Notes under the pieces: generated by a model
Databases searched by the model: none
What the model was told of the DNA's origin: nothing
What the model saw: only the letters and a program-made list of their open reading frames with translations
NCBI GenBank assembly: GCA_044224295.1
Contig: JBGAKQ010000003.1
Coordinates: 81,498-145,497, forward strand
Direction: 5' to 3'
Source of the DNA: Lacunisphaera sp.
Lineage (GTDB): Bacteria > Verrucomicrobiota > Verrucomicrobiia > Opitutales > Opitutaceae
DNA: 64,000 bases
Position numbers and translations under genes: made by a program
In this document: positions 19,894 to 52,737 of the stretch, piece by piece
How the letters are laid out: every line of letters starts with the position of its first letter
Position numbering within the stretch: position 1 is the stretch's first letter

Positions 19894-19898
19894 GTTGT

Positions 19899-34567: not shown

Positions 34568-35260
34568 TCAATACCCCGCTTCCTTCAGCGCCGCCAGGAT
34601 GCGGCGTTCGCCGCCGCCAATGTGCCGGGCCATCAACTTTTCGGCCTGCGCGGCGTCTCGCTTGCGGATTGCCTCAACCACCTTGATGTGCTCCTGCGTC
34701 GATTCCTCCGCGTCGATGCCGACGTCCAGACCCAGGAAACACGGCCGCTGGTGTCGCTCGAGGACGGTCGCGACGAGGCTTTCCAGCTGGCTGTTCCGCG
34801 CGCACCGGGCGATCTCCACGTGAAAACGATTATTCGCAAGCAGGTACGCGCGGTAGCTCTTGTGGTCACCGAGCGTGTACGAGAGCGTGGAAAGCTCCGA
34901 CAGTCGATTGACGTCCTCGGGGGTGGCGCGTTCCGCCGCCAAGGCCGCGACGGCGGGTTCGATCATCCGGCGCACCTCGCATAGATCCTGGAAGCTGCGG
35001 GCCGTCAGCGGGGCGACGGTGTAGCCGCGAAACGGACTCGCCATCACCAGGTTCTCGTTGGCCAGGCGGTTGAGCGCCTCGCGGATCGGCGTGCGCGAAA
35101 CGCCCAGCTGCGCGCAGAGCTCGGCCTCGATCAAGCGGTCGTCGGGTTTGAGGAGGCAGGTGAGGATGCTGTGCTTGAGCTCAGCGTAGACGCGGTCCGG
35201 CAGTACGCTCCCACCTGTGCGATTGCCATTGCTCGTTTCGGGCGCAGAAGCGGTTTTCAT
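34568..35260 (-). CDS. GntR family transcriptional regulator, FadR subfamily (FCD ligand domain)
   Basis: The ATG at 35260. Winged HTH LIEAELCAQLGVSRTPIREALNRLANENLV, then an FCD-like helical domain (EVRRMIEPAVAALAAERATPEDV ... FHVEIARCARNSQL ... EHIKVVEAIRKRD). Confidence 0.9.
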   Translation of the reverse strand: MKTASAPETSNGNRTGGSVLPDRVYAELKHSILTCLLKPDDRLIEAELCAQLGVSRTPIREALNRLANENLVMASPFRGYTVAPLTARSFQDLCEVRRMIEPAVAALAAERATPEDVNRLSELSTLSYTLGDHKSYRAYLLANNRFHVEIARCARNSQLESLVATVLERHQRPCFLGLDVGIDAEESTQEHIKVVEAIRKRDAAQAEKLMARHIGGGERRILAALKEAGY

Positions 35261-35335
35261 GGTGGGGTGAACCGGGCGATTTATCCGGGCCAGCGCCCCG
35301 GGGGTCGAGTAATTAATAAGGAGCAACTGCCGGCC

Positions 35336-36814
35336 TTACCGGATGAACAACCCGGTAAGGTAGATATACCAGCCGCCCAGGAGCACGCAAACGCCGGCAT
35401 GGAGCATGGCGGAGTTCCGCCACCGCCACAGCAGCCAGCAGAGCGGGGCCGTCACGGGAAAAGCAATGAGCGCCAGCGTGACCGGTTTGACCAGCCAGTG
35501 TTCCGCCAGGCGGTGGGTAAAGGCCCAGTTGTTGGCGTCCTTGGCCACCACGGCGTAGGCCAGGGTGAGGGTGGCTACGCCGATCACGGGGCCGATCCAC
35601 CGGACCGCCGGGGAGGCGGAGGCGGCCGGTTGCGCGGAGGGCCGCGCCGGTTGCGCGGCGTGGGCGCGGCGGCGCCACCACATCCAGGCGCCACTCAGCG
35701 CGAGGAAACTCGGCGTCATGCCGAGGATGAACCAAATGACTTTGGTGAAGAGGCCGCCGAAATAACCGAAATGAATCGGATCGAAAGCCCAGTAGATCCG
35801 GTTCCAACCGGTGTCCTCTCGGCCGTCGACCTTGCTGAGCACGTCACCGGTCACCGGGTCGAGCCGCAGGGAATTGCGCCGGCGCACATGGCTTTGGGCC
35901 ACCAGCATGCTGGGCACGTCGCCGGTCATGACCGCGGGTGTGCCGGCCTTCGCGGGAATGGTCATCGTGCGCACGGTGAAATCGGGAAACGCCGCGCGGG
36001 CGCGCGCCAGCAATTCGTTGGCGCCGAGCACCGGACCCGTCGCGAGGCGCTTGGCCGCTTGCCCGGGTTTCTCGGTCATCTCGCCGCCTTCGGCGGAATC
36101 GGCCGGCGCCGTGGCGGCCGAAGGGGAACTGAACCACTTCTTCTCGATGCGGACATACGCGCCCTCCAGGCCGAAGACCGCGCCGGTGAATCCAATCATC
36201 AGGTTGAACACGAGCGACCACACCCCGATGAACTTGTGCAACTCGGCCCAGGGCGGCCGGGTGCCCCAGCTGCCTTTCAGCCGCAATTGGAAGAGTTTCT
36301 TGATCCAGCCGCGGTAGATCCAGAGGCCCGTCGCGCAGGACAGCATCAGCGTCACGCCGAACACCCCGACGAACATGCGGCCCCACGCGCCCATCAGCAG
36401 GCGAACGTGCGACTGGCGGATGAATTGGTAGATCGTGCTGGTATAACCTCCGCCGGGAGCGCGCTCACCAGTGACCGCCCCGGTGGCGGGATCGACGTAC
36501 GCCGTCACGCCGCGACTTTTCCCATTGGGCTGCCGGACCGACAGGGCCGCTTCATGCGCGAAGTGCGGGCGCACTGAAAATTCGAGGCGGTTGATCCGGG
36601 CACCCGGGTACTGCGCTTGGAGGCTGGCGATGATGGCCTCCGCGTCGACGCGTTTGCCGTCGGCCGCGGGTTCGACGCGCATGCCGGGCGTCACCATCCA
36701 TTCAATTTCCGGAGCGAAAACGGCCACCGCGCCGGTGAACCCAATAAGGAACAGGAAGAGGCCGGTGAGCAATCCCAGCCAAACGTGCCAGCGAAAGACG
36801 GTTTTCAGGGTCAT
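35336..36814 (-). CDS. PepSY-associated TM-helix protein (PiuB/FoxB-like putative ferric-siderophore reductase)
   Basis: The start is trimmed to the ATG at 36814, giving MTLKTVFRWHVWLGLLTGLFLFLIGFTGAVAVF. There are repeated TM helices with conserved His (LHKFIGVWSL, DPIHFGYFGG). The longer ORF to 37345 overlaps the receptor gene. Confidence 0.8.
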   Translation of the reverse strand: MTLKTVFRWHVWLGLLTGLFLFLIGFTGAVAVFAPEIEWMVTPGMRVEPAADGKRVDAEAIIASLQAQYPGARINRLEFSVRPHFAHEAALSVRQPNGKSRGVTAYVDPATGAVTGERAPGGGYTSTIYQFIRQSHVRLLMGAWGRMFVGVFGVTLMLSCATGLWIYRGWIKKLFQLRLKGSWGTRPPWAELHKFIGVWSLVFNLMIGFTGAVFGLEGAYVRIEKKWFSSPSAATAPADSAEGGEMTEKPGQAAKRLATGPVLGANELLARARAAFPDFTVRTMTIPAKAGTPAVMTGDVPSMLVAQSHVRRRNSLRLDPVTGDVLSKVDGREDTGWNRIYWAFDPIHFGYFGGLFTKVIWFILGMTPSFLALSGAWMWWRRRAHAAQPARPSAQPAASASPAVRWIGPVIGVATLTLAYAVVAKDANNWAFTHRLAEHWLVKPVTLALIAFPVTAPLCWLLWRWRNSAMLHAGVCVLLGGWYIYLTGLFIR

Positions 36815-36882
36815 TGGGGCGGGGGAACGCGGGCGTTCATGAACAGGCGCCACCCCGGAAAGGGTGGCGCCCGGAGGGAGAG

Positions 36883-38982
36883 TTAGAAGCGGTAGTTTGC
36901 CGTGCCGGTGAAGGTGCGCGGATTTCCGGGGAAGTTGCCGTCGGAAGTGAACACGCTCTTCACGTAGTGGTTGTCGAGGAGGTTTTCGCACCGCAGGGTG
37001 AGGCGGAGCTTCTTCCAGCGATAGTACGCGGAGGCGTTGTAGACGATATACTCCGGTCCCGGGAAATTGCCCGCGCCGGAGAAGTTCGGGCGCTCGCCGA
37101 CATAGCTGCCCCCCAAGCTGAAGCCGAGCTTGGTGTCGGGAATGTTGTAGCGCGCGAAAAAGCCGGCCTTGTGATGGGGCGCGTTGGGGAAGCGGCTGCC
37201 AGGCGGGGTGGCGGCGAGGACGCTGCGCGTGACCATGGCATTGTTGTAGGCGTACGTGGCGACGACGCTCAAATCCTTCGTGACCTGGCCGGTGACGTCG
37301 AACTCGAAGCCCTTGCTCGTGACGTCGCCGATCGGGGCCAGCCAAGTGGACGGGGCGCCGGGCGTCGGGTCACGCTCGAGGATGTTCGTCTTCATGATCT
37401 TGTAGGCGGTGGTCGTGATGCCCAGGCGCTTGTTGAAGAGATCCAACTTGAAGCCGCCCTCCCAGGAATTGCTTTCCTGCGGGGGAAAGGGTCCGTTGCG
37501 GTCCTCGCTGCCCAGTGATTGGGGCACCAGGCCCATGGAGTAGCTGATGAAGGCGGCGATATCGGGGCGGATCATATAAACCGCGCCTCCGCGGTAGGTG
37601 AGCACCGAGTCATCGAATTGGTCGACCGTCGGGCGGGAGCGGCTGTCGTCGTAATTTTCGAGGCGCAGGCCGGCGAGCAGGTGAACCTTGTCCTTGATGT
37701 TGATCTGGTCCTGCAGGTAGTAGCCCAGGCGTTTCTTCACGGTATCCGTCGGCACCACGCCGTCGAGGGAGAGGTTATACATCGACCCGCTGCTCAGACC
37801 GTAGACCGGATTGTAGACGTTGATGGCCACGACCTGGGCTTGGGGAATGGTCTTCGTGGTGAAGACGCGGTTCGCATAGGAGAATTCCGCGCCGGTGAGG
37901 ATCTTGTGCTTCGCGCGGAGGAACTCGAGGTCGGCCACGCCGTTCACTGCCCACGAGTACTCTTCCATCGCGCGAAGCTGGATGCGGAATTCGCGCGGCC
38001 AGAGTCCGGTGGTGGGGTTGAAGGTGTTGGTCTCGTGATATGCCTGGTCGGCGTCGCTCTGGAAATAGCGCGCGTAGGCATTCACATGCACGTTCTGCGA
38101 GATATTGTGGTCGAGCTGGACGCTGTAGACGGTCGTGGCCAGGTTCTGGTAGTCGGTGGCCTCGGCGCCGTTGAAGCTGATGTCGGTGGCCCAGCCGGTC
38201 GCGAGGTAGGGGATGCCGCGGAGACGGGCACCGTTCTGGTCGTTCTTGATGTACTCGATCCCGGCGGTGGCGCGGGTCGACTTGCCGGCGACCCACGTGA
38301 AGCTGAAGTTCGCGTTGGTCGACTCCTGGTGGTAGTTGGCGCGGAAGCTATCGCGCTCATAGTAGTTGGCGCTGGCGAGATACAGGAAGCGTTTCTTCGC
38401 GTCCAGGGGGCCGGTGACGCTCGCGTTGCCGCCGATCAGTCCGTACTCGCCGAAACGCGTGCCGATGGAGGCGTCGAATTCAGCGCGCGGCTTGGCCGTC
38501 ACGATGTTGATCAGGCCGCCCGGCTCGTTGTCGCCGTACAGCAACCCGACGGGGCCCTTGAGCAGTTCCACCTGCTGCACGTTATCCAGCGTGGCCACGC
38601 CGAATTCATTGTAGGGGCTGCCGGCAATGCCGTTGTAGCGCGTCTGCTCCTGACGGAAGCCGCGGGCACTGACGCCACCGTAGCTAAATTCCGTGACGGC
38701 GCCCATCAGCGGGTACAAGTCCGTGATGTCGGTGGCGCCCATGTCCTCGATCAGGTCCTTGGTGATGACCTGAATGTTCTGAGGTATATTAATGAGTGGC
38801 GTGTCGGTCTTGGTGCCCGTGATCGCGGTCGCGCTCTTGTAAGCGGAGTCCTGCCGGTCGGTCACTTTGAACTTATCCAGTTCAAGGACCTTCTTGTCGT
38901 CGAGTTTTTCCGGCGCCTCGTCGGCGGCGGACATAGCGGTGGCGAGCACCGCGGACATCATGAGCGCATGGATCGTCTTCAT
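36883..38982 (-). CDS. TonB-dependent siderophore-type receptor (FhuA/FhuE-like)
   Basis: Signal peptide, then the plug TGTKTDTPLINIPQNIQVITKDLIEDMGATDITD...GVSARGF...VELLKGPVGLLYG. A 22-strand-size barrel ends in NYRF. Confidence 0.9.
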   Translation of the reverse strand: MKTIHALMMSAVLATAMSAADEAPEKLDDKKVLELDKFKVTDRQDSAYKSATAITGTKTDTPLINIPQNIQVITKDLIEDMGATDITDLYPLMGAVTEFSYGGVSARGFRQEQTRYNGIAGSPYNEFGVATLDNVQQVELLKGPVGLLYGDNEPGGLINIVTAKPRAEFDASIGTRFGEYGLIGGNASVTGPLDAKKRFLYLASANYYERDSFRANYHQESTNANFSFTWVAGKSTRATAGIEYIKNDQNGARLRGIPYLATGWATDISFNGAEATDYQNLATTVYSVQLDHNISQNVHVNAYARYFQSDADQAYHETNTFNPTTGLWPREFRIQLRAMEEYSWAVNGVADLEFLRAKHKILTGAEFSYANRVFTTKTIPQAQVVAINVYNPVYGLSSGSMYNLSLDGVVPTDTVKKRLGYYLQDQINIKDKVHLLAGLRLENYDDSRSRPTVDQFDDSVLTYRGGAVYMIRPDIAAFISYSMGLVPQSLGSEDRNGPFPPQESNSWEGGFKLDLFNKRLGITTTAYKIMKTNILERDPTPGAPSTWLAPIGDVTSKGFEFDVTGQVTKDLSVVATYAYNNAMVTRSVLAATPPGSRFPNAPHHKAGFFARYNIPDTKLGFSLGGSYVGERPNFSGAGNFPGPEYIVYNASAYYRWKKLRLTLRCENLLDNHYVKSVFTSDGNFPGNPRTFTGTANYRF

Positions 38983-39054
38983 GGGAAGTAGCGAGAGGTT
39001 GTTTGCCCGGTGAACGGGACGTGACTAGCAGCCGAAATGCCAGCGGCAAGCCTT

Positions 39055-39065
39055 ATTGTATACGA
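39055..39065. promoter_or_regulatory. Candidate GntR operator ATTGTATACGA (site 1; ~75 nt upstream of the siderophore-type receptor start)
   Basis: The 11-mer is identical to 51277-51287. It contains the palindrome GTATAC and is an AT-rich island in a GC-rich intergenic region. Confidence 0.4.
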
Positions 39066-39264
39066 AATCGAAGAAGCGCCCGAAAAACCCGGGCGAGCCA
39101 GGCGGCGTTAGGCCTGCTGTATTTGAGGACGTCGGGAAAGGACATGGCCGATAAAGTTCGTGTTTTTCACTCTCACGAGCGTGTAAGCGGAATGCGCGCA
39201 CGCGGTGCCTGCCGGCAGGGCGCGGGCTCGAAAAACGGAGGTCGGTATTCTTTTGGGGTTGCCT

Positions 39265-39275
39265 ATCGTATACAC
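39265..39275. promoter_or_regulatory. Candidate GntR operator (site 2; reverse strand reads GTGTATACGAT; ~100 nt upstream of the OM-channel operon)
   Basis: Shares the 9-mer TGTATACGA with sites 1 and 4. Confidence 0.35.
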
Positions 39276-39372
39276 TCTGCCTTTCAAAACGAGAGTCCCG
39301 TATGAAACCTGCTTCGATTCTTTCAGGCGCCGGAGTTGCCGGCTGGGCCACGACGCTGGGAGGGGTTTCGCG

Positions 39373-40104
39373 ATGAAGCGCGCTCGGCACAAGCTCCTGC
39401 TAGCGTCGCTCCTCCTCTGGGCCGCCCCGTGGTTGCTCGCCCGTCCGCTGGACACGGACGACACAGGCACCGTCGCGAAGGGGCAGTGGGAAATGGAGGG
39501 CGGGCTGGATTTCACCCGCGCAGCGGGAGCCAATTCGTGGGCGTATACGCCGGTGTTGGCGTACGGGCTTACCGATCGCCTTCAAGTCGAGCTTGGCTGC
39601 GACTACTTGGTGGAGCACGGTGACGTGGACGAGGCCGCTGCGCACGGACTGGATCCATTGCTTCAACTTAAGAGTCGCTGCTGGAGCACGGCCGACGGTC
39701 GCTTCAGTCTCGCTCTCGCTGGAAACCTCGGCTGGCCGGCTCGCCTGCGCGGGCCCCGCGAGGGCTGGGAGCGGCACGGCGAGGTGCGGTTGCTGGCCAC
39801 GCAAGAATTCGGCGAGGCCGCTCTCGATTTTAATGCAGGCTATGAATTCACCGGTGCGTGGGGCGGTGGGGATGACGCTGGGCTCGTGAGTGCCGGCTTT
39901 CGTCGCCCCGTGACCTCAACGCTCGGCTGGGTCGGTGAAGTGTTCGCGACGTTTCCGCGGCAGGCTTCCATGCAGACCCTGGTGGCGACCGGCCTGACGG
40001 TCCAAGGGCGAGGCGGCTGGACCTTTGATGCGTTGGTGGGCTGCGGCGTCGGGACTGAAAGTCCGGACGTTCGATTTGTACTCGGATTTGTTCGTGCCCT
40101 CTGA
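39373..40104 (+). CDS. Putative outer-membrane beta-barrel channel (MetA/phenol-degradation-pathway transporter-like)
   Basis: The ATG at 39373 gives the signal peptide MKRARHKLLLASLLLWAAPWLLA. LDTDDTGTVAKGQWEMEGGLDF and alternating beta-strand-like segments follow. The family assignment is from memory only. Confidence 0.45.
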   Translation: MKRARHKLLLASLLLWAAPWLLARPLDTDDTGTVAKGQWEMEGGLDFTRAAGANSWAYTPVLAYGLTDRLQVELGCDYLVEHGDVDEAAAHGLDPLLQLKSRCWSTADGRFSLALAGNLGWPARLRGPREGWERHGEVRLLATQEFGEAALDFNAGYEFTGAWGGGDDAGLVSAGFRRPVTSTLGWVGEVFATFPRQASMQTLVATGLTVQGRGGWTFDALVGCGVGTESPDVRFVLGFVRAL

Positions 40105-40109
40105 TCGCG

Positions 40110-41402
40110 ATGACCCTTCCTGCCGCACTCTCCGAGCAACTCGTCCGCTGGCGGCGGGATTTTCATGCGCACCCCGAACTCGGCTTTTGCGAATATCGGA
40201 CCGCCGCGAAGGTTTGTGGCGTGCTGACCGGGCTGTCGGGCTGCACCGTGCGGGTGGGGCGTGAGGTCATGGATCCGGCGGCCTGCGTGGGAATGCCACC
40301 GGCGTCAGAAATCGCGGCGGCGCGCGCCGAAGCGCTTTCGTTGGGCGCCGACCGCGCGTGGGTCGAGCGGATGGGGGACGGGCTCACGGGCGTGGTGGCG
40401 GAGTGGGATTTCTCCCGGCCCGGACCGACGGTGGTTTTCCGCGCGGATCTGGACGCCTTGCCCGTCACGGAATCCACTGCCGCGACGCACCGGCCCGCCT
40501 GCGAAGGATTCGCGTCAAAACATATCGGTCGGATGCACGCGTGTGGGCACGATGGAAACACCGCCGTGGCGCTTGGCCTCGCCGCGATGGTCGCCGAAAA
40601 GAGCGCAGGGTGGGGCGGCCGCCTGCGCATTGTCTTTCAACCGGCGGAAGAAGGTTGCCGCGGCGGCCCGTCGATGATCGCGGCCGGGGTTGTCCGCGAT
40701 GCGGATTATTTCGTCGCCAGCCACCTAGGTACTTCGGCCAAGGAGGCCGGCCTGGTGAGCTGCAGTGTGCGCGGCTGGCTGGCGACGACCAAGCTCGACG
40801 TGGTCCTGCACGGGAAGGCGGCTCATGCGGGCCTCGCTCCGCAGGAAGGGCGCAACGCATTGCTGGCGGCGGCAACCATCGTGGTCCAGTTGCACGCGCT
40901 ACCGCGGCATGCGGACGGCGCATCCCGCGTCAACGTCGGTGTGCTCAAGGCCGGCACCGGGCGCAACATCATCGCCGATCGCGCGGAACTCAAACTCGAG
41001 GTGCGCGGCGCGACCACCGCGATCAATGACTTCATGACCGCGGAGGCCAGACGCATCATCGCGGCGGCGGCGGAAATGCACGGCGTACGAGCGGAGGTTT
41101 CGGTGGCCGGCGTCGCGCAGGGCGGCGCCTGCGACGCAAAGCTGCAGCCGATCGTCCGCGCGGCCGCCCTCGATGTGCCGGCGACCCGCCGGGTGGTGGA
41201 TTGGCTCGAGACCAGCGGGAGCGAAGACGCCACCTTCTTCATCAACGCCGTGCAGGCTCGCGGGGGATCGGCGACGTACGTGCTGGTTGGCACGCCCCTG
41301 GCCGCGGGTCACCACGAACCGGATTTCGATTTTGATGAAACCGCCTTGGCGCATGCCGTGGCCGTGCACACGGGCATCGCCGACCGGCTGCTGCGTCCCT
41401 GA
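40110..41402 (+). CDS. M20D-family amidohydrolase (aminoacylase / hippurate-hydrolase-like)
   Basis: WRRDFHAHPELGFCEYRTA, the MHACGHDGNTAV metal-binding motif, FQPAEEG. 430 aa. Confidence 0.85.
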   Translation: MTLPAALSEQLVRWRRDFHAHPELGFCEYRTAAKVCGVLTGLSGCTVRVGREVMDPAACVGMPPASEIAAARAEALSLGADRAWVERMGDGLTGVVAEWDFSRPGPTVVFRADLDALPVTESTAATHRPACEGFASKHIGRMHACGHDGNTAVALGLAAMVAEKSAGWGGRLRIVFQPAEEGCRGGPSMIAAGVVRDADYFVASHLGTSAKEAGLVSCSVRGWLATTKLDVVLHGKAAHAGLAPQEGRNALLAAATIVVQLHALPRHADGASRVNVGVLKAGTGRNIIADRAELKLEVRGATTAINDFMTAEARRIIAAAAEMHGVRAEVSVAGVAQGGACDAKLQPIVRAAALDVPATRRVVDWLETSGSEDATFFINAVQARGGSATYVLVGTPLAAGHHEPDFDFDETALAHAVAVHTGIADRLLRP

Positions 41403-41413
41403 AATTTTTCCCC

Positions 41414-44009: not shown

Positions 44010-46013
44010 ATGAAGAAACTGGTGTTCCTCTTTTTGTGTGCGGCGGGCTTGCTGCCGCGGTCCGCTTCGGCGGCCGAATTGACCCCCGAACTCATCGTCG
44101 ATCTCAAGATGGTGCAGGACGTGCGTTTGTCCGCGGACGGCAAATGGGTGGCCTATCTTGTCGAGGGCGAGGGCGACGGCGGTGGCAAGAGCAAGAAACT
44201 GTGGGTGGCCAGCACCGAAGGTGCCCTGTCCCAGCGACGGCTGCTCCCCGATCGCAACCAAGTATCCGTGGCGCGGTGGGCGCCGGACGGCCGGCTCGCG
44301 GTCGTGGCCCAAAGCGAGACCGCGCCGCGACGCCGACAGCTGCTGTTGATAGAAGCGTCCGGCGGGGAACCGCGCGTGCTCGTGGATAAATTTGCGGGCG
44401 CTTCCCTCGAATGGTCACCCGATGGCCGCCAGCTGGGCTTTCTCCAATCGGATGCGGCGGCGCCGGCCCGCAAACGCAGCGCGGGTGAACCGCTGGTTTA
44501 CACCCGTGAGCAGGAACCCGAGACTGCGGTGGATCGCTTGTACACCCTCGACGTGGCCACGGGCATGACGCAGGCGCGCACGCCTTCGACCCATAGCCTT
44601 ACCGATTTCGCCTGGTCGCCGCGGGGAGACGCCGTGGTGGCATTGGCTCGTCCGGTGAAGGACGGGTCACGGCGGGCTGTAACGATTTTCGCGCTGTCAG
44701 GAAATGACCGGCCGCGCGAATTATGGACGCCCTCGGACCAAACGAATGCGCTGTCGTGGTCTCCGGACGGCAAGACGATTGCGTGGACCGGGCGCGAGTT
44801 CACGCCGGGCAGCGGACAGTTGGTGGTGATGAATGCGGCCGGCGATCCCGCGGTGCGCACGGTGCAGGCGAATTTTCCCGGTTCGATTCACCACATGATG
44901 TTCCGGGCCGACGGTCGGCTGGCCTTTGGCGCCCAGGTGAATCTCCGCATCGGAATTTATTCGGTCGCGGCGGACGGTTCGGATTTGCGTGAGGACCATC
45001 CTGCCGCCTCCTTCGCTCCCGGCTCGCTCGGGGCCGGATCGCTCGGCGGATTCACGATTTCGTTTAGTGCCGACGGGTCGCGGGTGGCGAGTGCCGTTTC
45101 CGGACCGCGGGAATATGCCAACGTCATCGCCGGCCCGTGGAGGGGCACGCTTACGCGCCGCACCGCGCTTAACCCTGAGGTCGCGGACGTACCGCTGGCT
45201 ACGGTGGACGAGATTTCTTGGAACTCATTCGATGGGCTTGAGGTGTACGGTTTCCTCGTGAAGCCCGCGGGCTTCAATTCCGCAAAGAAATATCCAATGG
45301 TGGTCCTGCCACATGGCGGGCCGCGTCGTTCCTGGTGGGCGACATGCGTGCTGGAAGATTGGAGCGGCTGGCTCGCGAACCAGGGCTATGTCGTGCTGAT
45401 GCCGAATCCGCGCGGCAGCGAAGGGCGTGGAGCTGACTTCGTGCGCGCCAACCGCATGGACTTGGGCGGCGGCGACTGGCGAGATATCGTGGCGGGTCTG
45501 GACCACGTCCTCACGTTAGGCTTCGTCGATCCCGACCGGCTCGCGATCACGGGCTGGAGTTATGGCGGCTATTTGACGGCGTGGGGTATTACGCAACCGG
45601 AGGGTAGGAGATTCAAGGCAGCGGTGATCGGCGCCGGCATTACGAACCGCCTGTCCAAGGGCGGCGCGGCGGGCAGTTGGTCGGATGTTCATTACGGCGA
45701 CCCGCAGGCGATTTGGCGGAATACGCAGGAATTCTTTTATCGTTCACCCCTCGCGCATGTCAGCCGGGTCACGGCACCGACGCTGATCGTGCACGGCGAT
45801 AACGACTCCAAGGTCGCCCACAACCAGGCGTTGGATTTTTTCAACGGGCTCAAGGCGCTAGGTGTGCCCACGGAGGCTCGGATTTATCCGGGCGAAGGCC
45901 ACAACTTCAGCCAGCGAGACCACCGGATCGATTTGTTGAACAGCATCGCCCGGTGGCTGCGCACCTATGTGCCGGCTGATGCGCCGCGCATTGCGCAAAC
46001 CGCCCAGCAGTGA
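44010..46013 (+). CDS. S9-family serine peptidase (prolyl oligopeptidase / dipeptidyl-peptidase-like), secreted, paralog 1
   Basis: The ATG at 44010 gives MKKLVFLFLCAAGLLP. An N-terminal beta-propeller-like region (SADGKWVAY, SPDGRQLGF, SPDGKTIAW) is followed by GWSYGGYL (Ser nucleophile), HGDNDSKV (Asp) and GEGHNF (His). Confidence 0.85.
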   Translation: MKKLVFLFLCAAGLLPRSASAAELTPELIVDLKMVQDVRLSADGKWVAYLVEGEGDGGGKSKKLWVASTEGALSQRRLLPDRNQVSVARWAPDGRLAVVAQSETAPRRRQLLLIEASGGEPRVLVDKFAGASLEWSPDGRQLGFLQSDAAAPARKRSAGEPLVYTREQEPETAVDRLYTLDVATGMTQARTPSTHSLTDFAWSPRGDAVVALARPVKDGSRRAVTIFALSGNDRPRELWTPSDQTNALSWSPDGKTIAWTGREFTPGSGQLVVMNAAGDPAVRTVQANFPGSIHHMMFRADGRLAFGAQVNLRIGIYSVAADGSDLREDHPAASFAPGSLGAGSLGGFTISFSADGSRVASAVSGPREYANVIAGPWRGTLTRRTALNPEVADVPLATVDEISWNSFDGLEVYGFLVKPAGFNSAKKYPMVVLPHGGPRRSWWATCVLEDWSGWLANQGYVVLMPNPRGSEGRGADFVRANRMDLGGGDWRDIVAGLDHVLTLGFVDPDRLAITGWSYGGYLTAWGITQPEGRRFKAAVIGAGITNRLSKGGAAGSWSDVHYGDPQAIWRNTQEFFYRSPLAHVSRVTAPTLIVHGDNDSKVAHNQALDFFNGLKALGVPTEARIYPGEGHNFSQRDHRIDLLNSIARWLRTYVPADAPRIAQTAQQ

Positions 46014-46081: not shown

Positions 46082-48079
46082 ATGAAAACCATTGCGCCAC
46101 TCCTCGCGTTGGCAGCGTGCTGCCTATCCGTTTGCGCCAGCTTCGGAGCGGATCTGACCGCGGAATTCCTGGCTGACCTCAAGACCGTGGGTGGGGTGCG
46201 GTTGTCACCCGACGGCAAATGGGTCACCTACGTGGTGGAAGGCGAATCCCGCGAAGCCGGCAAGACAAAGGAATTGTGGCTGGCCAGCGTGGACGGGAAA
46301 CCCAGTCAGCGGCGCCTGCTGCCTGGACGGAAAAACGTGTCGGAGGCCCGGTGGTCCGCCAGCGGCCGCCTGGCGGTGGTGACGGCTGCGGAGATCGAGC
46401 CTCACCGCCAATTGTTGCTGGTGGATTTGGGAACCGAGGCCGTGCAGGTGCTCGTCGACCGGTTCGAAGGCTCTTCGATCGAATGGTCGTCAGACGGCCG
46501 GCAAATTGGATTCATCCAGACCGAAAGCATCGTGCCGGCCCGCAAGCGTAGCGCCAGCGAACCGCTGGTGCTCGACGCCACGCGCGCCGCCAGCGGCAGC
46601 GTGAGTCGGTTTTTCACACTGGATGTCGAGACGAAAGTCCAGCAAGTCCGGACCCCGCCCAGTCACTCCGTCACCAAGTTTGGCTGGAGCCCGCAAGGTG
46701 ATGCCATCGTGGCGCTGGCGCGCAGCGTGAACGATGGGCGGGGGACCATGATCACAGTGTTTCCTTTCGCGGAGGGTGCCGCGCCGCGCGAACTCTGGCA
46801 TCCGCATGATCAAACGCTGACGCTTGCCTGGTCGCCTGACGGCAAGGTGATTGCTTGGTGCGGGCGGGAACTGACTCCGCAAAGCGGACAATTGGTGTTG
46901 CTACAGGCCAACGGTGATCCGCGCCCGCGCACCGTGCAGGCAGATTTTCCGGGCAGCCTGCACCACATCGCTTTTCGGGCGGACGGCCGACTGGCCTTCG
47001 GCGCACTGGAGAACCTACGGGCCGGCATTTATTCCGTTGCGGCGGACGGTTCCGACCTGCGCGCGGATCATCCCGCTTCCTCTTTCGCCCCGGGATCATT
47101 GGGGGTCGGTTCCTTCGCGTATTTCGCGCTCTCTTTCAGCGCTGACGGCTCGCGGGTCGCGACCACGGTGTCCGGGCCGGGAGAGCCGGCCAACGTGATC
47201 GCCGGACCGTGGCGGGGAAACTTGACGCGCCGCACCGACCTCAATCCGGCCGTCTCGGAACTGTCGTTGGGCGCGGTGGAGGACGTCTCCTGGCGGTCCT
47301 TCGACCAATTGGAGATCCATGGTTTTGTGATCAAACCGCCGGGGTTCGACCCCGCGAAAAAATACCCGCTGGTGGTTCTCACGCACGGTGGGCCGCGTCG
47401 CTCCTGGTGGGCAAACGGATTCTTGGATGATTGGTGGGGCCAGTGGATCGCGCACCAAGGTTACATGGTGTTCCTCCCTAATCCGCGCGGCAGTGAAGGT
47501 CGCGGGGCGGATTTTGTGCGTGCGAATTACCGCGACCTCGGTGGCGGCGACTGGCGGGACGTGGTGACGGGCCTGGACCATGTGCTCACGCTGGGGAATG
47601 CCGATCCCGAGCGCCTAGGCTTGGCCGGCTGGAGCTATGGTGGCTTTCTGGCGGCTTGGGGGCTCACGCAGCCCGAGGGACGGCGATTCAAGGTTGGCAT
47701 TGTCGGCGCGGGCATCACCAACCGCCTGGCGGGTGGAGCCGCCGCGAGTGGCTGGTCGGAGGATCACTATGGTGACCCGCAGCTGATCTGGCGTCATCCT
47801 ATGGAGCACTTCTACCGTTCGCCGATCGCCCATGTGGGGTGCGTCTCGGCCCCAACGTTGATCCTCCACGGCGACAACGACACGACGGTGCCCCACGGCC
47901 AATCGATGGATTTCTACAATGGGCTGCGCGCTATGGGCGTGCCCACGGAGGCGCGGATCTATCCCGGTGCCGGGCACGCCTTCACCCGCCGCGATCAGAA
48001 AATTGATCTGTTCAACAGCATTGCGCGTTGGCTGCGGACGTACCTCCCGGCTGGCGCACCGCGCGCCGGACAAAAGTGA
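46082..48079 (+). CDS. S9-family serine peptidase, secreted, tandem paralog 2
   Basis: Colinear with paralog 1 and identical at most aligned positions by eye. GWSYGGFL, HGDNDTTV, GAGHAF. Confidence 0.85.
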   Translation: MKTIAPLLALAACCLSVCASFGADLTAEFLADLKTVGGVRLSPDGKWVTYVVEGESREAGKTKELWLASVDGKPSQRRLLPGRKNVSEARWSASGRLAVVTAAEIEPHRQLLLVDLGTEAVQVLVDRFEGSSIEWSSDGRQIGFIQTESIVPARKRSASEPLVLDATRAASGSVSRFFTLDVETKVQQVRTPPSHSVTKFGWSPQGDAIVALARSVNDGRGTMITVFPFAEGAAPRELWHPHDQTLTLAWSPDGKVIAWCGRELTPQSGQLVLLQANGDPRPRTVQADFPGSLHHIAFRADGRLAFGALENLRAGIYSVAADGSDLRADHPASSFAPGSLGVGSFAYFALSFSADGSRVATTVSGPGEPANVIAGPWRGNLTRRTDLNPAVSELSLGAVEDVSWRSFDQLEIHGFVIKPPGFDPAKKYPLVVLTHGGPRRSWWANGFLDDWWGQWIAHQGYMVFLPNPRGSEGRGADFVRANYRDLGGGDWRDVVTGLDHVLTLGNADPERLGLAGWSYGGFLAAWGLTQPEGRRFKVGIVGAGITNRLAGGAAASGWSEDHYGDPQLIWRHPMEHFYRSPIAHVGCVSAPTLILHGDNDTTVPHGQSMDFYNGLRAMGVPTEARIYPGAGHAFTRRDQKIDLFNSIARWLRTYLPAGAPRAGQK

Positions 48080-48123
48080 TTGGCAGGGGCGTCCCTTGCG
48101 GACGCCCGCGTTGGCCGCCCATT

Positions 48124-48350
48124 GTAGGAGCCTGCTTGCAGGCGATGAAACGTGCGCCATCGGTAGACCGTTTTTTTGAATCCAAAGCCGGTTCTCGTCT
48201 CAAAATCCGGATCATTTCCGCCACCGTCATCCTGAGCCGTGCGAAGGAGCGAAGGGGATTCGCGAGTTCGCTTGGGTTTTTCGCACGGCTCAGAATGACG
48301 ACAGCGACAAGCGCGGGTGTGGGCCGAGTCGCCTGCAAGCAGGCTCCTAC
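48124..48350. repeat. Composite nested element: family C arms (48124-48145 and 48329-48350) enclosing a family A palindrome (48226-48299)
   Basis: GTAGGAGCCTGCTTGCAGGCGA ... [GTCATCCTGAGCCGTGCGAA ... TTCGCACGGCTCAGAATGAC] ... TCGCCTGCAAGCAGGCTCCTAC. It lies between convergent genes. Confidence 0.8.
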
Positions 48351-48364
48351 AAACGGCGGGCGCT

Positions 48365-49381
48365 TCAGCCCCAGAAGGGGAATTTATCTCCGCGTCCCGA
48401 TTGGAGCGCCTTCTGATAAACCAAGGCGGCGGCGGCGACGTCTTGCAGGGCGGTGCCGGTGGCGTCGTAGATGATGATTTCCTGGTCGTCCTTGCGGCGC
48501 GGCGCTTGGCCGATGATCACCTGCCCGAGCTCGCCGCGCACATCGGACGCCTTCATGAGGCCGGCGTCGATTGCGTGGTGAAGGTCGCCGACATGTTCAC
48601 ACTGCGCCGTGAGGTCGGTGACGACCGAGTTCGCGGCGAGAAATTCCGGTTCCATCTCCTGCTTGTCCGGGCTGTCCGCCCCGACGGCAGCCACGAAGGT
48701 GCCCGGCGAAATCATGTCGCGTCCGATGATCCAGCGGCGGGCGGGAGTGCACGTCACCACAATGTCGCTGGAGCGAGTCGCGGCGCGAAGATCGGGTGCG
48801 GCTCGGACCGGCAGCCCGAGCTTGCGCGCCTGGATGCCCGCGAACTCGGCGGCCTTGTCGGCATTCAAATCCCAGACGTGGACGCTCTTGATCGGGCGGA
48901 CCTTCGTAATGGCCTCGAGCTGGATCGCTCCTTGAATTCCGCCGCCGATGATGGTCAACGTGCTCGCATTCGTTTTGGCGAGATAGCGCGCGGCCACGGC
49001 GGTGGTGGCGCCGGTGCGCTTGATGGTGATTTCAGCAGACTCCATCACCGCCAGCGGCTGGCCGGTGCTGGCATCGTAGAGCAGGATCAGGCCTTGGATA
49101 TTGGGCAGGCCGTTGCGCGCGCGATTCTGGAAGAACCCGCCGTTCACCTTGCAGGCGTAGACGGGCTTGGGTGTGCGCAAGCCGCCGGCCTTGATGTGGA
49201 ATTCGCCGTCGATCCCATCGCCATGGAGAAGGCCTGGCCCGAGCGTTTCCCCGCGCGCATGGGCGCCGAAGCATTCCTCGGCCGCGGCGATGCATTCCTC
49301 CACCGTGAGCAGCTCGGCGATCGTCCTGCGATCGAGGAGGAGGGCGGGGGGAGTGGTTCTGAGTTGGATCGGGTCAGGCAT
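48365..49381 (-). CDS. Ornithine cyclodeaminase / mu-crystallin family protein
   Basis: The ATG at 49381 gives MPDPIQLRTTPPALLLDRRTIAELLTVEECI. Also HIKAGG, LILLYDASTGQPLAVM, TIIGGGIQG (Rossmann), IIYDATGTALQDV. Confidence 0.85.
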   Translation of the reverse strand: MPDPIQLRTTPPALLLDRRTIAELLTVEECIAAAEECFGAHARGETLGPGLLHGDGIDGEFHIKAGGLRTPKPVYACKVNGGFFQNRARNGLPNIQGLILLYDASTGQPLAVMESAEITIKRTGATTAVAARYLAKTNASTLTIIGGGIQGAIQLEAITKVRPIKSVHVWDLNADKAAEFAGIQARKLGLPVRAAPDLRAATRSSDIVVTCTPARRWIIGRDMISPGTFVAAVGADSPDKQEMEPEFLAANSVVTDLTAQCEHVGDLHHAIDAGLMKASDVRGELGQVIIGQAPRRKDDQEIIIYDATGTALQDVAAAALVYQKALQSGRGDKFPFWG

Positions 49382-49400
49382 GGTTGAAGATGGAAATGTT

Positions 49401-51158
49401 TCAGCGACGCACTTGCACCGGTTCGAGGACGCGGCCCGGCAGTGCCAGCGTCGGGCGACCGCTCTCGACGACGGCCACGCCGTTGACGAAGACCGCATCG
49501 ATCCCAGTCGGATATTCGTTGGGTTCGAGGAAAGTGGTGTTGTCCTTCACATTTGGCAGATCAATGAGGACGAGATCCGCCTTGTAGCCGACCGCTAGCG
49601 TGCCCCGGTCGGGCAAATTGAGAATGTGCGCCGGCAGACTCGTGCATTTGCGGACCGTCTCCTCGATGGTTTCGATTTTCTGGTCGCGCACAAAATGAGC
49701 GAGGCGCCGTGGGTAGCTGCCGAAACAACGACGATTGGTGCCAATGTATTTCAGCGGACCCACCGCCTCTTCCGGGAGCACGATCCATCCATCGGTCGAG
49801 CCCATGCACCATGGCTGCGTGAGCAGCATTTCCACGTCCTTCTCCTCCATGCTGAAGGCGCGCAGCTTCACGCCACCCGGTCGGTGCGCGAAACCTTCGA
49901 GTTGCAACGCGACGACCAGCTCCGTCAGGCCAAGCTTCCGCATTCGCATCAGTTCTCCCAGTGATTTGCCGACGTAGGACGCGTCCGGGTACTCGAGCAC
50001 GCGGATGTTCTCGGCGCCGCCTTTCAAGTCGACCTGGTGTTCCACGTCGCGACGCAGGTCGGGAAGTCGTTCCGCGTTGGCGAGCGTGCGCCGCAGTCCC
50101 GCTTGGAAGTCGGCGGCCTTCGGATCGTCTTCATCGTCCTCATTGCCGGTCTTGGCATTGCCTCCCTTCATGGCCCACGGCGGGAGAGCGACAAAGTTTC
50201 CGTCGCTGCCGGCGCTGTCATAGGGATAGAGGTCGGCAAAAACTCGCGCACCCTTCGCCCGCGCCTCATTGATCCGCGCCACCGTCCGTGCGGCCTCGCC
50301 GCGAAAGCCCGGGCCCCAACCCTTGAGGTGGGTGGCGACAACGAGTGCGCCGGTTTCCCGCGCCACCTCGAAGATTTCGGTCAGTGAAGTTTCCAGTGTC
50401 GGTGGCGGCCGCGCGCCATGCACGCTTGGTTTGTACCACATCGGCGCCGACCCCTGGCTGCGGAGGTGCGCGATGAACACGCCATTGTGGGCGGGCAACA
50501 CGCGGGCGAGTTCGCGGAGTTCATTCGTATCGGAATAAAGACCACTGTTGTACTCCAGGCCCAGGGAGAGCCCAAAGGAACCTTCCTCGGTCAAGCCGCG
50601 CACAAGGATCGCCTGCATGCGCGCGATCTCCTCGGCATTCGCGGGTCGCGCCGTGTCCTTCCCCATCACCTGGCGGCGCAGCGTGGCGTGACCATTGGCG
50701 AGTGCGACGTTGACGCCGATGCCTAGTTGTTGGAGCTCGCGCCGCTGGTCCACGAGCGACGCCGGCTGCCCGCCATCCGGATTCACAAAGGCGGTGGTCA
50801 CCCCTTGCATCACGTAATTCTGGGCGGCGCGGTAGCGCGCGTCCGGGGAGCGCAGGGTCTTTTTCTTGTTACCGGCATCATCGAGATGCGCATGCACGTC
50901 GATAAAACCCGGCGTCAGATAACGGCCCTTTGCGTCGATGACTTGACGCGCGTGCGCGGCGTCGAGGAAACCGATCGCGGCAATGCGATCGCCAATGACG
51001 GCGACGTCACCTCGAAACGGAATCGCGCCGGTCCCGTCGACCACGGTCGCGTTTCGGATAAGCAGGTCGTATTCGGACTGGGTTGCGGCGGTCGCGATGG
51101 TGACCGCGTAAGCAGCCGCGAGACAGGCGAGAAGGCACAGGGTGGGACGAGGCGTCAT
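49401..51158 (-). CDS. N-acyl-D-amino-acid deacylase (D-aminoacylase) family amidohydrolase, secreted
   Basis: Signal peptide. YDLLIRNATVVDGTG...GDVAVIGDRIAAIG...TPGFIDVHAHLD metal motif, and a C-terminal GTLAVGYKADLVLID. 585 aa. Confidence 0.85.
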   Translation of the reverse strand: MTPRPTLCLLACLAAAYAVTIATAATQSEYDLLIRNATVVDGTGAIPFRGDVAVIGDRIAAIGFLDAAHARQVIDAKGRYLTPGFIDVHAHLDDAGNKKKTLRSPDARYRAAQNYVMQGVTTAFVNPDGGQPASLVDQRRELQQLGIGVNVALANGHATLRRQVMGKDTARPANAEEIARMQAILVRGLTEEGSFGLSLGLEYNSGLYSDTNELRELARVLPAHNGVFIAHLRSQGSAPMWYKPSVHGARPPPTLETSLTEIFEVARETGALVVATHLKGWGPGFRGEAARTVARINEARAKGARVFADLYPYDSAGSDGNFVALPPWAMKGGNAKTGNEDDEDDPKAADFQAGLRRTLANAERLPDLRRDVEHQVDLKGGAENIRVLEYPDASYVGKSLGELMRMRKLGLTELVVALQLEGFAHRPGGVKLRAFSMEEKDVEMLLTQPWCMGSTDGWIVLPEEAVGPLKYIGTNRRCFGSYPRRLAHFVRDQKIETIEETVRKCTSLPAHILNLPDRGTLAVGYKADLVLIDLPNVKDNTTFLEPNEYPTGIDAVFVNGVAVVESGRPTLALPGRVLEPVQVRR

Positions 51159-51180
51159 GGGAAAGGAACAGGTTCCAATA

Positions 51181-51191
51181 TAGTATACAAT
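51181..51191. promoter_or_regulatory. Candidate GntR operator (site 3; reverse strand reads ATTGTATACTA; ~25 nt upstream of the D-aminoacylase start)
   Basis: Shares ATTGTATAC with sites 1 and 4. Confidence 0.35.
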
Positions 51192-51276
51192 ACGAGGCCC
51201 CGCGGGGCGGAGATTACACTGCGATACGAGGGAAGGCGAAGGCGTCGCCTTTTCAAGGGAAAATCATTGACTGGTG

Positions 51277-51287
51277 ATTGTATACGA
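51277..51287. promoter_or_regulatory. Candidate GntR operator ATTGTATACGA (site 4; ~65 nt upstream of the POT transporter start)
   Basis: An 11/11 match to site 1. Confidence 0.4.
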
Positions 51288-51351
51288 GAATCCTTTCCAG
51301 CGCCAGCGTGCTTGGCGCCGCGCCGCCGTACTCTCAGTCACCAGCAACCCG

Positions 51352-52737
51352 ATGATTGGATTCTCCGCCCACCCCCGTTGCCTTCCGGTGTTGTTTTTCA
51401 CCGAGATGTGGGAGCGGTTCAGCTTCTATGGAATGAATGCCCTGCTGGTGTTGTATCTCGTCCAGCCAGTGGTCGATGGGGGTTTGGGCTATGCGACGGA
51501 TCGCGCAGCACTGTTGTACGGCAACTACACGCTGTTGATTTACGTTCTGTCCATCGTCGGCGGTTTCGTTGCCGACCGCTGGGTTGGTCAAAAGATGGCG
51601 GTGGTGGTTGGCGGCGTGGTGATCGCGGGAGGGCATTTCTCCATCGCGCTGGGTTCGGTCGCGAGCTTGTACGTCGGCTTGGGCGGCATCGCGATCGGGA
51701 CGGGTTTTCTCAAACCTAACGTCAGTTCACTCGTCGGCCGCCTGTATTCGATGGATGATCCCCGACGCGACGCCGGCTTTTCGCTTTACTACATGGGCGT
51801 CAATCTGGGCGCGTTCATCGCGCCGATTGTCTGCGGCTACCTTGCGCAGAGCGTCGGGTTCCGTCAGGTGCTCGCCGACGCGGGCCTCGACCCGCGCGGC
51901 AGCTGGCATTGGGGTTTTGGCGCGGCGGGCGTGGGGATGCTGATCGGATTGGGACTCTTCTTGCGCGCGTGGAAGGCTATCCCGGCTGATCCGCCCCGGG
52001 GACTCACCGCGGTTTCGGATGAAAGTCGTCCGGCGTCCGCCGTCGTGGCCGGTGATGAACTCCGGCAACGCTTGCTCGCGATCGGTTTCTTTTGCCTGTG
52101 CGCAATCCTGTTCTTTGCCGTGCTGAAGCAATCAGGCTCATCGATGAATCTTTTCGCCGACCGCCTCACGCGCTGCGAAGTCTTCGGGTTCACCTTCCCC
52201 TCGTCATGGTTTCAGTCAGTCGGCCCGGGATTCATCATCCTGCTAGCGCCTGTCTTCTCGCGGCTCTGGCTTCGGCTCGGAGATCGCCAGCCGTCCAGTC
52301 CCGCAAAGGCCATCCTAGGGCTAGCCGGTGCCGCGGGGTGCATGGCGCTGATGGCGTGCGCGGGTTTCCTTGCCGTGGAAGGACGCGTGAGCCCTTTCTG
52401 GCTCGTGGCCGCGTACGCCGCCCAAACGATGGGCGAACTTTGCCTGAGTCCGGTCGGCTTGAGCAATGTTTCCCGGCTCTCGCCGCCTGCGATCGGTGGA
52501 TTGATGATGGGTGCGTGGTTTGTGGCGATTGGTCTGGGCGGCAAACTGGCGGGTTCGCTTGCGGCTGGGTTTGGCCGGAGTGACCCTTCCGGGTTGGCCT
52601 GGGTATTTGGCCGGCAGGCGATCGCCATCGTGGTGCTGGCACTGCTGCTGGCATGCCTCGTCCCATGGGTTCGGCGGGTGATCGCGCGGAGCGCGGGCAC
52701 GCCAGCTATCGCGACCGGCCCGCGGAGCGCCGGTTGA
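51352..52737 (+). CDS. Proton-dependent oligopeptide transporter (POT/PTR2 family, DtpT-like)
   Basis: The ATG at 51352. FFTEMWERFSFYGMNALLVLYL (ExxERFxYYG-type signature), IVGGFVADRWVGQ, FKPNVSSLVG. Confidence 0.9.
   Translation: MIGFSAHPRCLPVLFFTEMWERFSFYGMNALLVLYLVQPVVDGGLGYATDRAALLYGNYTLLIYVLSIVGGFVADRWVGQKMAVVVGGVVIAGGHFSIALGSVASLYVGLGGIAIGTGFLKPNVSSLVGRLYSMDDPRRDAGFSLYYMGVNLGAFIAPIVCGYLAQSVGFRQVLADAGLDPRGSWHWGFGAAGVGMLIGLGLFLRAWKAIPADPPRGLTAVSDESRPASAVVAGDELRQRLLAIGFFCLCAILFFAVLKQSGSSMNLFADRLTRCEVFGFTFPSSWFQSVGPGFIILLAPVFSRLWLRLGDRQPSSPAKAILGLAGAAGCMALMACAGFLAVEGRVSPFWLVAAYAAQTMGELCLSPVGLSNVSRLSPPAIGGLMMGAWFVAIGLGGKLAGSLAAGFGRSDPSGLAWVFGRQAIAIVVLALLLACLVPWVRRVIARSAGTPAIATGPRSAG

Follow-up and report, generated by a model that had tools for sequence, protein, structure and literature searches.

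A siderophore-type TonB-dependent receptor and PepSY_TM protein within a putative GntR-controlled peptide-catabolic regulon of Lacunisphaera sp.

Why should a TonB-dependent receptor of the siderophore type, together with a PepSY_TM inner-membrane protein, be encoded among enzymes for peptide breakdown? We asked this of a locus at positions 34568-52737 of a 64-kb stretch of DNA from Lacunisphaera sp. (the window), where an earlier note had proposed that such a pair is embedded in a GntR-centered peptide-degrading gene set. Open reading frames (ORFs) were listed and subjected to profile searches (Pfam and NCBIfam), and gene starts were sharpened with independent gene calls on the identical public contig. 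The answer we favor, tentatively and with a little less than even confidence, is that the locus is one GntR(FCD)-controlled, probably substrate-inducible regulon that imports and dismantles a small unusual peptide, delivered in the form of a metal chelate and most likely a ferric siderophore of the peptide type. The operator boxes and gene linkage described below demonstrate, within the reach of comparative analysis, co-regulation and evolutionary capture of the pair, and from them and the gene families we infer the cargo and all of the proposed chemistry.

The 12 genes of the region form four units in two divergent pairs; these units, the gene families, and the short spacers of unit 2 were borne out as the earlier note had given them. 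Unit 1, on the minus strand, encodes the receptor (36883-38982), then the PepSY_TM protein (35336-36814, starting 68 bp downstream of the receptor gene), then a GntR/FCD regulator (34568-35326). Unit 2, on the plus strand, encodes a 243-amino-acid (aa) outer-membrane protein, an M20D amidohydrolase, a pyridoxal phosphate (PLP) enzyme, an S33 hydrolase, and two S9 peptidases, with spacers of 5-68 bp. Unit 3 (minus strand) comprises an Amidohydro_3 D-aminoacylase-like enzyme followed by an enzyme of the ornithine cyclodeaminase (OCD)/mu-crystallin family, and unit 4 (plus strand) is a POT transporter gene alone. The regulator, last gene of unit 1, has an N-terminal GntR winged helix (Pfam GntR, 2.5e-17) and a C-terminal FCD domain (6.6e-25); given orthologues of 228-233 aa, the gene may in fact begin at the ATG at 35260. 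No equivalog model matched it, the best being phnR_burk at 95 bits against a cut-off of 271.5. A scan found no minus-strand terminator between the PepSY and gntR genes and one after gntR, at 34494-34475.

FadR-subfamily GntR regulators have the operator consensus TNGT-N(0-3)-ACNA. The window contains three exact copies of TTGTATAC, compared with 0.08 expected, and a 10-mer search allowing one mismatch located a fourth copy at 39266. All four boxes (three perfect and one imperfect), of the form TNGT-N2-ACNA with the core GTATAC (also written TNGTATACNA), are confined to two divergent intergenic regions of the 64 kb. Box 1 (TTGTATACGA, 39056-39065) lies 74 bp upstream of the receptor ATG, and box 2 (TCGTATACAC, 39266-39275) follows a -35-like TTGCCT approximately 100 bp upstream of the outer-membrane protein gene. 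Box 3 (TAGTATACAA, 51181-51190) is 22 bp upstream of the deacylase ATG, and box 4 (TTGTATACGA, 51278-51287) follows TTGACT 65 bp upstream of the POT ATG.

The conservation of this arrangement was examined in two surveys, with the surveyed loci designated by L numbers and called linked when the pair and the enzyme genes lie together. In an S33-anchored survey of 79 loci from species-representative genomes, the full set was present in two, L007 (a Lacunisphaera metagenome-assembled genome, MAG) and L013 (an Opitutaceae MAG), both with the GntR, PepSY, and receptor genes divergent from the enzyme operon. None of the 77 other S33-anchored loci had the gene set, and when their surroundings were scanned with hidden Markov models for the receptor and PepSY genes, two weak receptor-like ORFs were all that turned up. 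The one of these that was examined, near a 61%-identical S33 gene in L009, was discarded, having no Pfam support, and S33 was abandoned as an anchor for distant synteny, its homologues of ≤61% identity in other phyla sitting apart from the set. Searching with the receptor added L087/88, L174, L175, and L177, which together with L007 and L013 make six linked loci besides the window. We infer linkage on further contigs from contigs of the same length among the receptor, S33, and outer-membrane protein hits. All loci examined within one monophyletic receptor clade were linked, at receptor identities down to 68%, and in a neighbor-joining receptor tree the linked loci form one clade with the unlinked loci as sisters; the linked clade is a small group of freshwater and soil Opitutaceae. 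None of the seven sister or outgroup orthologues was linked (L089/90, L091, L092, L093, L086 from Oleiharenicola lentus, L096, and L094). A background set of 80 distant receptor loci was taken from a metagenome receptor-alignment scan, mostly at 24-32% identity among the matches listed; 17 of these had a PepSY gene, and none had a homologue of the enzyme genes, a GntR gene, or a POT gene within 10 kb.

Within the linked clade, the receptor-PepSY-GntR unit and two boxes are constant. The gntR gene lies downstream of and co-oriented with the PepSY_TM gene in all five linked loci that reach it (L175 ends inside gntR). The enzyme genes are commonly arranged as one operon, (AbgT)-OMP-M20D-PLP-OCD-S33-deacylase-S9-(POT)-S9, where OMP is the outer-membrane protein. 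The four-unit layout described in the earlier note is present in the window but specific to this genome, the six relatives having only two divergent units: in the window the OCD and deacylase genes have been relocated next to POT, in a divergent arrangement that is new and has a box pair of its own. In L174, M20D and AbgT are missing and one S9 gene is relocated; L177 has gained a CstA gene; and POT, AbgT, and CstA are swapped among lineages. In L177 (JGI 3300056624, a 253-kb contig; 3803-20435) the GntR, outer-membrane protein, M20D, PLP, and OCD genes are fragmented, probably by assembly indels rather than decay, and the locus ends with the gene for the CstA peptide/pyruvate transporter after S9.

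Box 1 is kept at the same position in L007, L013, L087, L174, and L175, and box 2 is kept, 165-210 bp from box 1, in all six linked loci read. Across the six genomes, the DNA separating the receptor gene from the operon has largely diverged, and what stands out in it as conserved is mainly the boxes and the promoter-like elements next to them. At operon-side promoters the box directly follows a -35-like TTGNNT, and on the receptor side it stands 6-8 nt before a conserved CTTGC. The operator common to the receptor unit and the enzyme genes, as claimed earlier, was thus found only in the two divergent regions and is kept in relatives. Downstream of box 1 and before the receptor start lies a promoter-like block (39027-39042, minus strand) with a sigma-54-like TGGCAT-N5-CTGCT, its single match in the window, and a -35-like CTTGCC on its 5' side. 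The sigma-54-like spacing occurs in four of the six linked loci (perfect as TGGCAC-N5-TTGCT in L007) and CTTGC in all six; the sigma-54-like element is not kept in L174 or L175, and a sigma-54 promoter for the receptor was not relied on. A simple scan found no sigma-70-like promoter upstream of the receptor.

The sister orthologues point to the control under which the pair may have stood before. The unlinked orthologues (56-66% identity) occur in iron islands with ferritin, more receptor/PepSY pairs, a PiuC-like oxygenase, DUF4198/ApbE, and an AraC regulator. A scan with the Escherichia coli Fur consensus gave background scores only, but it revealed the clade's own 7-1-7 palindrome, TGAGACT-N-AGTCTCA. 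At ≥11 of 14 positions, this motif had 12 hits in 121 kb of unlinked loci (shuffled mean, 2.4): L086 at 9441 and 9975; L089 at 9856 and 9910; L091 at 4037, 4067, and 4804; L092 at 7340; L093 at 2518; L096 at 9866; and L176 at 159 and 694. When compared with gene calls, the hits proved to be intergenic or at an intergenic margin, most of them a short distance upstream of a receptor or ferritin gene. There were no hits in 149 kb of linked loci (L007, L013, L087, L174, and L175) including the whole window, and no conserved block besides the GntR boxes and promoter-like elements was seen in the receptor promoter of the linked loci. We regard the palindrome as a candidate Fur-type operator of Opitutaceae. 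Taken at face value, the results indicate that the receptor/PepSY pair left an iron regulon and entered a GntR regulon, a FoxA/FoxB-type module having moved from one control to the other. As a separate observation, in the unlinked locus of O. lentus (L086, 12208-16526) the receptor and PepSY genes are followed by a PF00756 "putative esterase" gene and a POT gene whose product is 48% identical to that of the window; this could be an independent hint of hydrolysis and peptide transport with the receptor lineage, or coincidence.

What the pair itself might do was assessed from its homologues. The receptor has plug and 22-strand barrel domains (PF07715 and PF00593), lacks an N-terminal signaling domain, and scores 270.3 bits against TIGR01783 (cut-off, 223.5). 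Its nearest solved structures are FoxA, FetA, and FhuA (~1e-42 to 1e-36), and its scores against equivalog models (FhuA, FoxA, FhuE, Fiu, and others) were all far below the cut-offs. As a SusC-type protein it scored 31 bits with TIGR04056, compared with a cut-off of 368, and no SusD-like gene is present at the locus. The PepSY_TM protein (PF03929, 3.8e-61) is a putative FoxB-like di-haem periplasmic metal-chelate reductase; FoxB (7abw) was its sole sequence match in the PDB. In FoxB, four transmembrane histidines ligate two b-haems (10.1101/2021.01.28.428567). The corresponding residues, His10, His136, His193, and His348, align with these ligands and are invariant in five linked and five unlinked orthologues; therefore, haem-dependent reductase function is probably retained. 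The siderophore-type character assigned earlier to the pair thus held, with TIGR01783 above its cut-off and FoxA/FoxB the nearest solved homologues. Between the linked and unlinked clades, PepSY identity is 45-51% and receptor identity 56-66%, and the window receptor is 64-66% identical to its iron-island sisters and 68% identical to that of linked L087.

The enzymes were compared with models and structures in the same way, and none of them reaches an equivalog cut-off. Signal-peptide-like N termini were recognized, by eye from the translations, in the receptor, the 243-aa protein, the S33 hydrolase, both S9 peptidases, and the D-aminoacylase-like enzyme, and not in the M20D, PLP, and OCD-family enzymes. 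The description of the set as nearly all secreted therefore stands for four of the seven enzymes and fails for the other three. The M20D protein (40110-41402, plus strand; TIGR01891, 291 bits, cut-off 153.75) appears to be a cytoplasmic AbgA/AbgB-type amidohydrolase, and its nearest structure is PDB 3io1, "aminobenzoyl-glutamate utilization protein" (2e-114). In L007, L087, and L177, an AbgT gene belongs to the same operon as M20D with only the outer-membrane protein gene between them; AbgT is present in L007, L087, L175, and L177 and is not found in the window, save for a doubtful 24-codon remnant.

The cytoplasmic fold-type II PLP enzyme (41414-42382, plus strand; PALP, 1.7e-80) falls in the serine-racemase/beta-hydroxy-amino-acid dehydratase group, with serine racemases as its best PDB matches (3.5e-97). 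Its best NCBIfam match was BhcB, at 402.7 bits and below the cut-off of 550; the 3-hydroxyaspartate in the earlier label is a family name only. For the OCD-family enzyme (48365-49381, minus strand; PF02423, 4.5e-68), the PDB matches were 1omo, an archaeal alanine dehydrogenase (6e-52), 6t3e, a pyrroline-2-carboxylate reductase, and 6rqa, the iminosuccinate reductase BhcD (1e-41). Scores for ornithine cyclodeaminase itself were low (PRK07589, 141.7 versus 350), and its structure 1u7h (8e-26) ranked behind those three. The ornithine breakdown proposed in the earlier note reflects a family name and is not supported, the nearest homologues being these other enzymes and the gene being partnered with PLP. 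In L007, L013, L087/88, L174, and L177, the OCD gene lies directly downstream of the PLP gene, and it overlaps the end of that gene by a few bases in L087/L088 and L174, the loci with gene calls. The OCD-family protein is most likely a cytoplasmic NAD(P)-dependent imine reductase or dehydrogenase acting as partner of the PLP enzyme; the adjacency and the nearest homologues therefore suggest a dehydratase/racemase plus imine-reductase pair, analogous to BhcB/BhcD and EutB/EutC. The BhcABCD cycle as such was rejected (BhcB, 402.7 versus 550; BhcD, 200.9 versus 500; no aminotransferase or aldolase in the locus), as were Eut/Doe pathways (EutB, 260 versus 413; EutC, 241 versus 471; DoeB2, 136 versus 550; no M24 DoeA) and Sus, lasso-isopeptidase, and OCD family assignments, all with sub-threshold scores.

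The D-aminoacylase-like enzyme (49401-51158, minus strand; PF07969) matched PDB entries 9g5m (2e-49), the D-aminoacylase 1m7j (2.5e-46), and the N-acyl-D-Glu deacylase 3gip, and its family also holds the carbohydrate de-N-acetylase 9kb3. An HxH motif is present, with DVHAH aligned to 1m7j, and approximately 100 aa are inserted between residues 318 and 435. The metal ligands of D-aminoacylase are the Cys of the GNCG motif, two His, and an Asp. By eye, the GNCG region reads GVTTAFVNPDGG in place of GVTTVVTGNCGIS, with no Cys, and HHK is changed to HLK, in a region that HMMER aligns poorly. The earlier assignment as an N-acyl-D-amino-acid deacylase holds at the family level, with the homology and HxH motif in its favor; on manual reading the Cys ligand does not appear to be conserved. 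The S33/TAP-like alpha/beta hydrolase (42431-43960, plus strand; Pfam Abhydrolase_1 and Abhydrolase_4) is a putative secreted aminopeptidase with a TAP-like C terminus and had no PDB sequence match. S9 peptidase a (44010-46013, plus strand; Peptidase_S9, 1.8e-50) has a beta-propeller and a hydrolase domain, its nearest structures being S9 peptidases, acylaminoacyl peptidases, and DPP4, and S9 peptidase b (46082-48079, plus strand; 5.5e-43) is its paralogue with ~65% identity. The POT/PTR2 di-/tripeptide:H+ symporter (51352-52737, plus strand; PTR2, 8.6e-58; TIGR00924, 322.8 bits, cut-off 130.2) is encoded within the operon in L013; other lineages have AbgT and CstA instead of it or in addition to it.

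These assignments can be assembled into a working model of the favored regulon. The FoxA/FhuA-like receptor would carry the chelate into the periplasm, where the FoxB-like di-haem PepSY_TM protein would reduce and free the metal, and a FapF/COG4313-like barrel, described below, may admit metal-free peptide or fragments. The four periplasmic hydrolases (two S9, S33, and D-aminoacylase-like) would trim the peptide to di- and tripeptides or N-acyl amino acids, which would be taken up by POT in the window and by AbgT or CstA in relatives. In the cytoplasm, the AbgA-like M20D enzyme would split the imported fragments, and the PLP racemase/dehydratase with the OCD-family reductase would convert a non-standard residue, such as a D- or beta-hydroxy-amino acid, to a standard amino acid. 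A breakdown product, probably a carboxylate, would release GntR from the boxes.

Several observations weigh against this model. Functions specific to peptide siderophores, for example, the handling of N-hydroxy-ornithine, could not be identified in the locus, all of the enzymes would be equally suited to ordinary or cell-wall-derived peptides, and with no enzyme at an equivalog cut-off the proposed chemistry is putative. The PepSY_TM proteins are not exclusively ferrisiderophore reductases (CrpH/copper): they have a copper-linked subfamily, and a putative copper reductase among them has a TonB-dependent copper transporter as its partner (PMC13038864). The relocated S9 gene of L174 has no GntR box. 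The iron-box motif was found post hoc and is only a candidate Fur site, and the linked loci may possess a divergent iron operator. Finally, the association is limited to one narrow Opitutaceae clade, so its conservation is partly shared ancestry. Siderophore catabolism is nonetheless a plausible reading of the gene content. It is possible, if doubtful, that the locus is the first genetically defined pathway in which a foreign ferric peptide-type siderophore (ferrichrome-, amphibactin-, or pyoverdine-like) is imported, stripped of its iron by a FoxB-like reductase, and eaten for its backbone as a carbon and nitrogen source, with the compound itself, and not a shortage of iron, as the inducing signal.

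The alternative that survives best, which we consider unlikely yet deserving of serious attention, is a regulon for the salvage of peptides or D-amino-acid peptides from cell-wall-derived or environmental oligopeptides, in which the receptor/PepSY pair is an ordinary hitch-hiking iron module handling a different molecule and box 1 serves GntR autoregulation. Autoregulation alone would indeed explain a box upstream of a unit ending in gntR, but an iron module lacking iron control would be odd, and the Fur-like box of every sister orthologue is absent. All of the enzymes, and POT, AbgT, and CstA, belong to generic peptide-handling families, and the operon has its own outer-membrane channel and no obvious need of the receptor; even so, the enzyme genes have been rearranged independently at least five times and the pair is still attached. 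Although S33 homologues in other phyla occasionally lie beside POT, PLP, S9, or M20D genes in receptor-free surroundings, such neighbors were found at none of the 80 other receptor loci among the matches listed. Both the lost iron box and the persistence of the linkage are harder to account for by salvage than by the favored model.

Transporters of the TonB-dependent type for non-iron substrates such as sugars and vitamins are well established. The receptor might accordingly have been neofunctionalized for a metal-free peptide nutrient, with PepSY_TM performing another periplasmic redox step or acting on another metal, such as copper, a reading that we judge quite improbable. The switch from a Fur-like to a GntR box would suit it, as would the greater divergence of PepSY than of the receptor between the linked and unlinked clades and the family's putative copper reductase with its TonB-dependent copper transporter (PMC13038864). 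Set against these points, the receptor scores above the siderophore-receptor cut-off and shows no extra divergence, being about as close to its iron-island sisters as to linked L087, and the invariant haem histidines together with a PepSY gene in every linked locus speak for a metal cargo that can be reduced. That an iron module and an unrelated peptidase cluster came together by chance, without common regulation, is near refuted: the absence of the association outside one clade would fit chance, but the shared and conserved boxes, the gntR gene inside the receptor unit, the monophyly of the linked clade, and a link that survived rearrangements while the iron box was lost all oppose it. Because of the clade-wide linkage, its survival through rearrangements, the constant boxes, and the absence of the arrangement elsewhere, we conclude that the connection of the pair to the peptidase genes is not fortuitous; the synteny anticipated in relatives was found in the window and six loci, and both it and the operator comparisons speak against a coincidental or unconserved arrangement.

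Parts of the favored regulon resemble known systems. FoxA/FoxB of Pseudomonas aeruginosa and HiuABC of Caulobacter crescentus are hydroxamate xenosiderophore modules in which, as here, a PepSY_TM gene comes immediately after the receptor gene, and the likeness to Fox extends to the nearest homologues, the four haem histidines, and the iron islands around sister orthologues. HiuABC is under Fur, Fox is under iron and a siderophore-dependent sigma/anti-sigma cascade (10.1101/2021.01.28.428567), and neither has catabolic genes, whereas the Lacunisphaera locus lacks a signaling domain and a Fur-like box, has gntR in the operon, and shares its boxes with peptide-catabolic and transport genes. FadR/FCD repressors such as LldR, PdhR, DgoR, and NanR likewise use palindromic TNGT-N2-ACNA sites that overlap promoter elements at divergent promoters, with the regulator adjoining its regulon; the present regulon differs from theirs in including a siderophore-type receptor and a membrane reductase. 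As in abgABT of E. coli (p-aminobenzoyl-glutamate use), there is an AbgA-like M20D enzyme, with AbgT two genes upstream in L007, L087, and L177, but there is no LysR-type AbgR, M20D is a single gene, AbgT is lost in the window, and periplasmic peptidases, PLP and OCD enzymes, and the receptor surround it. The pairing of a PLP dehydratase-type with an OCD-family enzyme recalls BhcB/BhcD of the beta-hydroxyaspartate cycle and EutB/EutC of hydroxyectoine use, BhcD and EutC being among the OCD hits; scores were below the equivalog cut-offs, BhcA/C, DoeA, and EutA are absent, and the PLP enzyme is nearest to serine racemases. Fes, IroD, IroE, PfeE, and Cee share the concept of cutting a siderophore, with periplasmic hydrolases encoded beside a receptor, but these are iron-regulated esterases acting on catecholate trilactones, whereas the locus has putative S9, S33, and amidohydrolase enzymes with GntR boxes.

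Degradation of peptidic siderophores has been observed biochemically since the 1960s, and precedents include the ferrichrome A peptidase of Pseudomonas FC-1 and the cleavage of amphibactins by Microbulbifer. A recent paper on cleavage of the peptide backbone describes it as a biochemical activity and names no responsible genes (PMC11800396). Our literature searches found neither a described GntR/receptor/PepSY/peptidase system nor genes for peptide-backbone siderophore cleavage. Each of the components, namely receptor/PepSY modules, GntR catabolic operons, and abg-type pairs, has been described before, and their fusion in one regulon with iron control replaced was not found in the literature, in keeping with the earlier statement that this is not a standard described system. 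Siderophores form a large, nitrogen-rich pool within dissolved organic matter and serve as a currency in competition among microbes, and bacteria that destroy the siderophores of other organisms have been observed. The locus is a concrete candidate for the import and catabolism of a peptide siderophore and, if that reading is true, would supply a gene set for the degradation known from biochemistry. It documents a receptor/reductase module apparently moving from an iron regulon to a substrate-sensing GntR regulon, and even with a cargo other than a siderophore, the recruitment of a TonB receptor together with a haem reductase into a regulon for peptide feeding would broaden what the two families are known to do. 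A candidate Fur-type operator for Opitutaceae is a further outcome of the analysis.

The outer-membrane protein of unit 2 (39373-40104, plus strand) had no Pfam match even at E≤1, and only 13 homologues were found in 5.8e9 proteins, all from the same clade and 49-100% identical. The N terminus of the mature protein, RPLDTDDTG, and the C terminus, LGFVRAL, are invariant. An AlphaFold2 model from a 12-sequence alignment had a predicted local distance difference test score (pLDDT) of 79 and a predicted template modeling score (pTM) of 0.73, whereas a single-sequence model (pLDDT, 37) was unusable. The best fold matches were FapF and a COG4313 channel, at template modeling scores of 0.65-0.72, and the protein is predicted to be a clade-specific beta-barrel channel of ~12 strands. 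Between box 2 and this gene is an upstream ORF of 24 codons (39302-39376, plus strand; MKPASILSGAGVAGWATTLGGVSR), the stop of which overlaps the ATG of the outer-membrane protein gene. In L007, L087, L175, and L177 abgT occupies this position, and the ORF may be an abgT remnant: alignment of the DNA showed weak similarity to the abgT position of L007, and tblastn gave no match to abgT.

At the other end of the locus, an MFS transporter ORF (52653-54371, plus strand), as listed, shares 85 bp with the 3' end of the POT gene, its real start probably being later. It lacks a GntR box and is without a counterpart in L007 and L013, and so lies outside the conserved locus. The convergent gap between the S9 peptidase b and OCD genes, which is the junction of the OCD-deacylase rearrangement, is filled by a REP/MITE-like nested inverted repeat (48115-48359) with arms of 31 nt that are 94% complementary and enclose a second hairpin. 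The repeat family to which it belongs, TAGGAGCCTG(C/T)TT(G/A)CAGGCG, has seven copies in the window, mostly as inverted pairs, at 30118, 48125/48330, 54404/54459, and 55347/55401.

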